From NCBI RefSeq assembly GCF_045037415.1, contig NZ_CP173438.1: 64,000 nucleotides of DNA. One strand, written 5' to 3'. Both the position numbers and the translations under genes were made by a program. This document shows, one piece after another, positions 43,098 to 43,892 of this stretch. Every line of letters begins with the position of its first letter. The first letter of the stretch is position 1. The DNA is from Escherichia coli (GTDB lineage Bacteria; Pseudomonadota; Gammaproteobacteria; Enterobacterales; Enterobacteriaceae). The notes beneath the pieces are model-generated. The model searched no databases. It had not been told where the DNA came from and saw only the letters and a list, made by a program, of their open reading frames with translations.

Positions 43098-43892
43098 TCA
43101 TAATAATTGCGGCGGCGCAAAGCGACGGTTGTTTAAGACGGGCAGTTGCGCGCGCACCTGACGCACACGTTCGGGCGTCACTTCCGCCATAATGAGTGCA
43201 GGCATTTCTGACGCTGCCGCAATGGTGACGCCAAAGGGATCTATAATCCGGCTTTGCCCGATATTTTTGTTCCCGCACTCCCCCGCCGCCACCATATAAC
43301 AGGTGGTATCCAGCGCACGAGCGGCAAGCAACGTTGACCAGTGATGCTCTTTGAGCGGCCCACGAACCCAGGCGGCAGGAAGTACCAGTATTTCAGCTCC
43401 CTGTAATGCCTGTGCCAGCGCCAGCTCTGGAAAGCGTAAGTCATAACAGGTCATCAGACCGACCTTCATCCCCTCCACCTCCAGTAACGGAGCTATTTCA
43501 TTACCAGCATCAACATGGCGTGATTCCTGAATGGCAAATGCATCATAGAGATGCAGTTTGGCATAACGGGCGACGATGTTTCCTGCCTGTAGCGCCACCA
43601 GCATATTCCATGCGCGCCCCGGTGTTGAAGGAACATGAATCGTCAGAATTGTCGTCATCATGTTACGTTTACTTTCTCGCCGTAAACGACCGAGGAATTC
43701 GCCTTCCAGCAGTTGTGCTGATTTAACCGATAGATCTGCATCATGATCATCACGCGCCAGTAATGCTTCCGGCAGGACAAACAGCGAAACCTCGTTTTCC
43801 GCCGCCTGCGCCATCAACGAGGCACAAATCTCAACGTTCTTTTCCCACACAGATGTAACAGCAAACTGTCCTGCGGCAACCAGCATTGCCAC
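43098..43892 (-). CDS. ybeM: nitrilase-superfamily C-N hydrolase YbeM, intact
   Basis: 264-aa uninterrupted ORF with catalytic Cys context ([10 protein letters not shown]). Confidence 0.85.

Follow-up and report, generated by a model that had tools for sequence, protein, structure and literature searches.

In Escherichia coli K-12 the gene ybeM is annotated as disrupted, and an earlier note on the E. coli stretch studied here had proposed that the uninterrupted copy found in it looks like the ancestral functional allele. The locus thus raises two questions: which of the two states came first, and what the product of the intact copy could do. The window, i.e. the whole stretch of 64,000 nucleotides analysed here (contig NZ_CP173438.1 of assembly GCF_045037415.1), carries the gene on its minus strand. 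The reading we favour, with a probability of about 0.88, is that the window holds an intact, expressed-type ybeM allele encoding a Nit1-type amidase that would remove deaminated glutathione (dGSH), and that K-12 lost this enzyme through a 1-bp deletion. The gene, the name of its product and the K-12 frameshift are all already present in RefSeq, and the finding is in this sense real but ordinary.

The ybeM frame and its start codon

A minus-strand frame without internal stop codons spans 43098..43892 and is given in the program-made list of open reading frames (ORFs) as 264 aa with a GTG start. It is flanked by tatE at 42766-42969 on the minus strand and by crcB at 43979-44362 on the plus strand. 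The minus-strand sequence upstream of ybeM is GACAGGAGGTGGCAATG, and the GTG that opens the longer frame, at 43892, shares the last base of a Shine-Dalgarno sequence. In strain SK1144, whose copy is identical in sequence, the coding sequence annotated by PGAP begins at the downstream ATG and measures 789 bp, with a 262-aa product named 'deaminated glutathione amidase' (WP_001295861.1). Since the Shine-Dalgarno overlaps the GTG, the ATG lies 5 nt past it and PGAP uses this ATG in SK1144, the gene is assigned to 43098-43886; translation almost certainly begins at this ATG, at 43886, with a product of 262 rather than 264 aa. The earlier description of an uninterrupted 264-aa frame between tatE and crcB is therefore right as regards the open frame, the neighbours and the coordinates, but not the length of the protein. 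The features of the gene are:

43098..43886, minus strand: ybeM coding sequence, predicted deaminated glutathione amidase (nitrilase superfamily, Nit1 type), 262 codons plus a TGA stop (ORF, PGAP, Pfam PF00795, NCBIfam NF033621)
43892..43897, minus strand: Shine-Dalgarno AGGAGG, separated by 5 nt from the ATG at 43886 (read from the sequence)

The locus is found in 5424 of 5426 complete E. coli genomes and, together with the Pfam and NCBIfam matches given below, this shows that ybeM is not a chance ORF. Over a 1-kb region around the gene, identity is at least 99% in 572 genomes, and both the window and the identical SK1144 copy are free of any disrupting mutation.

Protein family and proposed reaction

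The translated frame matches the Pfam CN_hydrolase family (PF00795) with E=2.5e-41 and 142.2 bits, against a cut-off of 23.2, and the alignment is full-length, as residues 5-247 of the 264-aa ORF correspond to profile positions 2-255 of 256. The candidate catalytic residues, numbered on the 262-aa protein, were followed through an alignment of 12 proteins made up of the window copy and 11 orthologues from E. coli, E. fergusonii, Citrobacter, Salmonella, Leclercia, Kosakonia, Enterobacter and Scandinavium:

43767..43769, minus strand: codon 40 GAA, predicted catalytic Glu (general base); aligns with E54 of NitFhit; invariant in the 12 orthologues
43557..43559, minus strand: codon 110 AAA, predicted catalytic Lys; aligns with K127 of NitFhit; invariant in the 12 orthologues
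43446..43448, minus strand: codon 147 TGT, predicted catalytic Cys nucleophile; aligns with C169 of NitFhit and with the site of the Cys-to-Ser change (C169S) in yeast Nit2 4HGD; invariant in the 12 orthologues
43425..43427, minus strand: codon 154 GAG, second conserved Glu, of the motif CYDxRFPE; kept in 11 of the 12 orthologues and replaced by Asp in one Salmonella representative

The Glu-Lys-Cys triad, on which the earlier note had made its reading depend, is thus complete in the window copy, and the catalytic cysteine context that it had recognised is present as MTC147YDLRFPE. As for the fold, an AlphaFold2 model of YbeM (pTM 0.83) was used as a Foldseek query and returned structures of Nit2, NitFhit and Nit3 at the top, with TM-scores of 0.80-0.83 and E values of about 1e-22. 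The model predicts for YbeM the alpha-beta-beta-alpha sandwich of the nitrilase, or carbon-nitrogen hydrolase, superfamily. By its full-length domain, its catalytic triad and its fold, YbeM belongs to this superfamily.

Within the superfamily, the assignment is narrower. Indeed, the NCBIfam model for deaminated glutathione amidase (NF033621, de_GSH_amidase) is matched at 450.7 bits with E=1.4e-135, which exceeds its cut-off of 355 by about 96 bits, whereas the YafV/omega-amidase model PRK10438 gives 61 bits against a cut-off of 249 and all remaining NCBIfam models stay far under their cut-offs. The gene order crcB-ybeM-tatE-lipA, common to E. coli, E. fergusonii, Salmonella and Citrobacter, agrees with membership in the dGSH-amidase family. 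The proteins that RefSeq names 'deaminated glutathione amidase' by NF033621, e.g. WP_001295861.1 of SK1144 and WP_000959109.1 of BL21(DE3), are the same protein in the same genomic context, with no difference of substance. Among solved structures, the best sequence match is the Nit domain of Caenorhabditis elegans NitFhit (E=6.9e-30), followed by the yeast and Kluyveromyces lactis Nit2 proteins, and identity to eukaryotic Nit1-type proteins is 27-30%. This eukaryotic type comprises mammalian Nit1, NitFhit (PDB 1EMS) and the Nit2 proteins of Saccharomyces cerevisiae and K. lactis (PDB 4H5U, 4HG3, 4HGD, 7ELF), the fungal Nit2 proteins being orthologues of mammalian Nit1. YbeM has in common with it the fold, the Glu-Lys-Cys triad, the CYDxRFPE motif and the reaction assigned, hydrolysis of dGSH; it differs in being shorter (262 aa) and in having neither the fungal insertions nor the fusion to Fhit. 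E. coli YafV and mammalian Nit2 (omega-amidase, or 2-oxoglutaramate amidase) share with YbeM the superfamily branch and the catalytic chemistry, and both activities are described as metabolite repair, but they form a paralogous family with another substrate.

According to papers citing Peracchi et al. 2017, Nit1-type enzymes convert dGSH, the alpha-keto analogue of glutathione that stems from transaminase side reactions, to 2-oxoglutarate and cysteinylglycine, and in one paper NIT1 is equated with YbeM by name. Transferred to YbeM on the basis of established nitrilase-superfamily chemistry, the reaction would proceed as follows. Transaminases acting on glutathione generate dGSH as a useless by-product; Cys147, activated by Glu40 as general base, would attack the amide bond that joins the 2-oxoglutaryl group to Cys-Gly, while Lys110 would stabilise the tetrahedral intermediate (oxyanion). 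Cys-Gly would then leave, and hydrolysis of the thioester on Cys147 would release 2-oxoglutarate. Nit1 homologues are reportedly excellent dGSH amidases in E. coli. We infer both the catalytic activity of the window allele and its dGSH substrate from sequence, selection and the published enzymology of the family.

Since the dGSH assignment is drawn only from family models and from the literature on homologues, YbeM could also be an active amidase with another physiological substrate, i.e. 2-oxoglutaramate or a further amide or N-acyl compound. The identity of just 27-30% to the eukaryotic proteins and the difficulty of reading specificities from sequence in the nitrilase superfamily speak for such a substrate. 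It nevertheless appears improbable, as the score on the curated dGSH-amidase model lies about 96 bits above the cut-off and that on the YafV/omega-amidase model far below it. In addition, 2-oxoglutaramate is already served in E. coli by YafV, which is cited as the 2-oxoglutaramate amidase of this species, and the best matches in structure and sequence are the fungal Nit2 proteins that are orthologous to Nit1, among them the 4HGD complex, which contains a peptide-like ligand. Hydrolysis of dGSH is thus the preferred reading of the reaction.

The K-12 deletion and the ancestral state

In MG1655, ybeM (b4581) lies between crcB and tatE and is annotated as a pseudogene of 788 bp, at the same locus and in the same orientation as in the window, and in the K-12 derivative JM109 it carries the flag 'frameshifted'. 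Pairwise alignment agrees with the claim that the gene is disrupted in K-12 and intact in the window: the only indel between the two is a single 1-bp deletion, K-12 being without the G at nt 200.

43686..43688, minus strand: codon 67 CGT, whose middle base (43687) is absent from K-12 and from 860 complete E. coli genomes (pairwise alignment, translation, junction searches)

The K-12 frame stops after 75 residues, ahead of Lys110 and Cys147. Past the deletion, 195 codons are still open in the shifted frame, and their translation differs from that of the window by one amino acid, R124H. Apart from the deletion, 17 codons differ between K-12 and the window, 12 of them synonymously and 5 nonsynonymously. 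The frameshift alleles of K-12, at 2032-2819 of its locus, and of EcN_Sk carry V33A together with V37A, the latter at a position invariant in the 12 orthologues, whereas those of NCTC86 and AH21 have neither change; in this very small sample, the two substitutions fit drift after inactivation. Being a pseudogene, ybeM routinely serves K-12 workers as a neutral insertion site.

The distribution of the lesion was determined in 5426 complete E. coli genomes with junction-specific probes, for which every 28-base seed had to span the deletion site in codon 67. The K-12 deletion junction was found in 860 genomes, among them NCTC86, the isolate of Escherich, and the undeleted junction in 4487, while about 77 matched neither probe. 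Of 60 deletion carriers sampled at even spacing, roughly two-thirds were non-laboratory isolates according to their host and source fields (human, poultry, pig, river, seawater), and the PGAP frameshift flag on ybeM is present in NCTC86 (Germany, human), EcN_Sk and AH21. The possibility that the frameshift was acquired in the laboratory is rejected, as it occurs in NCTC86 as well as in many isolates from humans, animals and the environment. Since NCTC86 and non-laboratory isolates carry it, the K-12 lesion is an old natural polymorphism and not an artefact of domestication. In BL21(DE3), ybeM is intact (WP_000959109.1).

The direction of the change can be read from the outgroups. Throughout the Enterobacteriaceae there are intact orthologues of 262 aa that bear the name 'deaminated glutathione amidase' and, in particular, E. 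fergusonii, Salmonella enterica and Citrobacter sedlakii have an intact 789-bp ybeM in the order crcB-ybeM-tatE-lipA. In parallel, the dN/dS of ybeM (Nei-Gojobori) is 0.05-0.11 in comparisons inside E. coli as well as in those between genera, the latter with saturated dS. Since the outgroups are intact and syntenic and dN/dS is low, the open ybeM frame is ancestral and has been under purifying selection. The opposite polarity, in which the K-12 frameshift would be the original state and the window allele a secondary restoration of the frame, has a negligible probability. It is refuted by the intact orthologues that E. fergusonii, Salmonella and Citrobacter have in the very same gene order, by the excess of genomes with the undeleted over those with the deleted junction, and by the fact that all inspected alleles with the deletion fall into a single narrow group of haplotypes. 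On the preferred polarity, K-12 and related lineages of phylogroup-A type lost YbeM by the 1-bp deletion in codon 67, and the window preserves the ancestral open state.

The term 'ancestral' holds for the open frame and not for every residue. Three substitutions of the window allele, A18V, D32E and R124H, are derived or minority states when WP_000959109.1, the common protein of E. coli, is taken as reference. Among the 12 aligned proteins, Val18 occurs in that of the window alone, the remaining 11 having Ala; this conservative change is probably common to the 572 genomes with at least 99% identity over the 1-kb region. The proposal of an ancestral functional allele can thus be upheld for the intact frame, in view of the outgroup synteny and of the undeleted junction in 4487 of the 5426 genomes, and does not extend to these three substitutions, while its word 'functional' stands as a prediction from sequence, selection and the enzymology of the family.

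The divergence of ybeM between E. coli and E. fergusonii (2501-3289 of the latter's locus against 43098-43886 of the window) is unusually high, with 82% amino-acid identity and a dS of about 1.5. Some Citrobacter amalonaticus YbeM proteins are nearer to E. coli (84%) than that of E. fergusonii, which may reflect old recombination or fast evolution.

Further loss in E. coli and neighbouring features

A second lesion affects the beginning of the gene:

43836..43838, minus strand: codon 17 AAC, which in 37 genomes has lost one of its two A's (nt 49-50), an independent frameshift (exact 54-mer match)

This allele reaches a stop after 23 codons. As the flanking A's allow 28-mer seeds, the probe for it is not fully discriminating, and the 37 genomes counted are full-length matches in the band of at least 99% identity. 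The carriers include PA8, ATCC 43889 and E32511, and all those listed or inspected appear to be of O157:H7 type. Thus, E. coli has lost ybeM on at least two occasions, and the gene is therefore dispensable in some lineages. What is mildly new here is that two independent frameshifts, each fixed in its lineage, could be counted over 5426 genomes, which is of modest interest if the loss was selected. A broader reading, which we consider rather unlikely, is that loss of dGSH amidase is recurrent and structured by lineage (860 genomes including NCTC86 and the K-12 lineage, and 37 of O157:H7 type) and not a curiosity of K-12. Recurrent loss could reflect either selection for loss or conditional uselessness of the dGSH repair step. 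If this were true, K-12 would by nature be null for Nit1 and would accumulate or excrete dGSH, which would affect metabolomics and glutathione studies based on this strain. With the undeleted codon-67 junction present in about five of every six complete E. coli genomes and a fully intact gene in BL21(DE3), K-12 is unrepresentative for YbeM, and conclusions on glutathione damage products drawn from it may not transfer to other strains.

The dispensability of ybeM, shown by its two losses, also bears on whether the open frame of the window is still in use. The gene could be dead or silent in this lineage, owing to A18V, D32E, R124H or to a lack of expression, and thus represent a cryptic pseudogene at an early stage; A18V falls in a nearly invariant column, and the neighbouring ybeF has decayed in the same lineage. 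This is nonetheless a very improbable state for the allele, less probable than a different substrate. Indeed, the catalytic residues are all intact, Ala to Val is a conservative change, and dN/dS is 0.07-0.11 for the window allele against other E. coli alleles. Moreover, the gene has a strong Shine-Dalgarno followed by an ATG start, and the region is conserved at 99% identity or more in the 572 genomes, with the window and the identical SK1144 copies undisrupted. An intact allele of expressed type thus remains the preferred reading. In the uropathogenic strain CFT073, another bearer of an intact allele, ybeM is transcribed, has an NsrR ChIP peak and is down about 3-fold under NO. In the window, a simple consensus scan of the 92-bp intergenic region between ybeM and crcB gave no promoter-like site for ybeM, and counts of promoters and terminators were no higher than in shuffled sequence.

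In this divergent intergenic region, the only good match to sigma-70-like -35/-10 elements lies at 43886-43913 on the plus strand, where it is oriented towards crcB and overlaps with the start codon of ybeM. A search for the fluoride riboswitch RF01734 upstream of crcB (crcB-ybeM intergenic region, 43887-43978) gave no match at E<=1. Further along, the cspE leader (44368-44600) matches the cspA thermoregulator family RF01766 with 128 bits. Inside ybeM, an out-of-frame ORF at 43493-43636 on the minus strand encodes a peptide near-identical to MFLQRRGAH. The latter is encoded by one of the small out-of-frame ybeM fragments that, in a screen of strain UTI89, caused filamentation on overexpression, an effect that is probably an overexpression artefact.

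Gene decay is also seen elsewhere in the window. At 40936-41460 on the plus strand, ybeF is a pseudogene that misses about 392 bp compared with the intact 954-bp ybeF of K-12 and is annotated by PGAP in SK1144 as frameshifted and incomplete; the pattern of ybeM is here reversed, with K-12 intact and the window broken. E. fergusonii has no ybeF between lipA and lipB. Around 26277-26742, the SK1144 annotation points to remnants, namely part of a hypothetical gene and a fragment of ybeQ that is interrupted by a stop; in BL21(DE3), ybeQ is also a pseudogene and djlC is frameshifted.

The window and SK1144 share 99.97-99.995% identity over two aligned blocks, with the exception of one tRNA-Gln unit. 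Full colinearity of the two was rejected on account of this 112-bp unit. It belongs to the tRNA array metT-leuW-glnU-glnW-metU-glnV-glnX at 7121-7826 on the plus strand, which has seven tRNAs in the window and six in SK1144, where one tRNA-Gln(CTG) unit fewer is present; this is copy-number variation by deletion or duplication of the unit. Finally, the interval between lnt and gltI holds, at 15041-16918 on the minus strand, a gene for a rhomboid-family intramembrane serine protease of 625 aa, which is annotated in both SK1144 and BL21(DE3).
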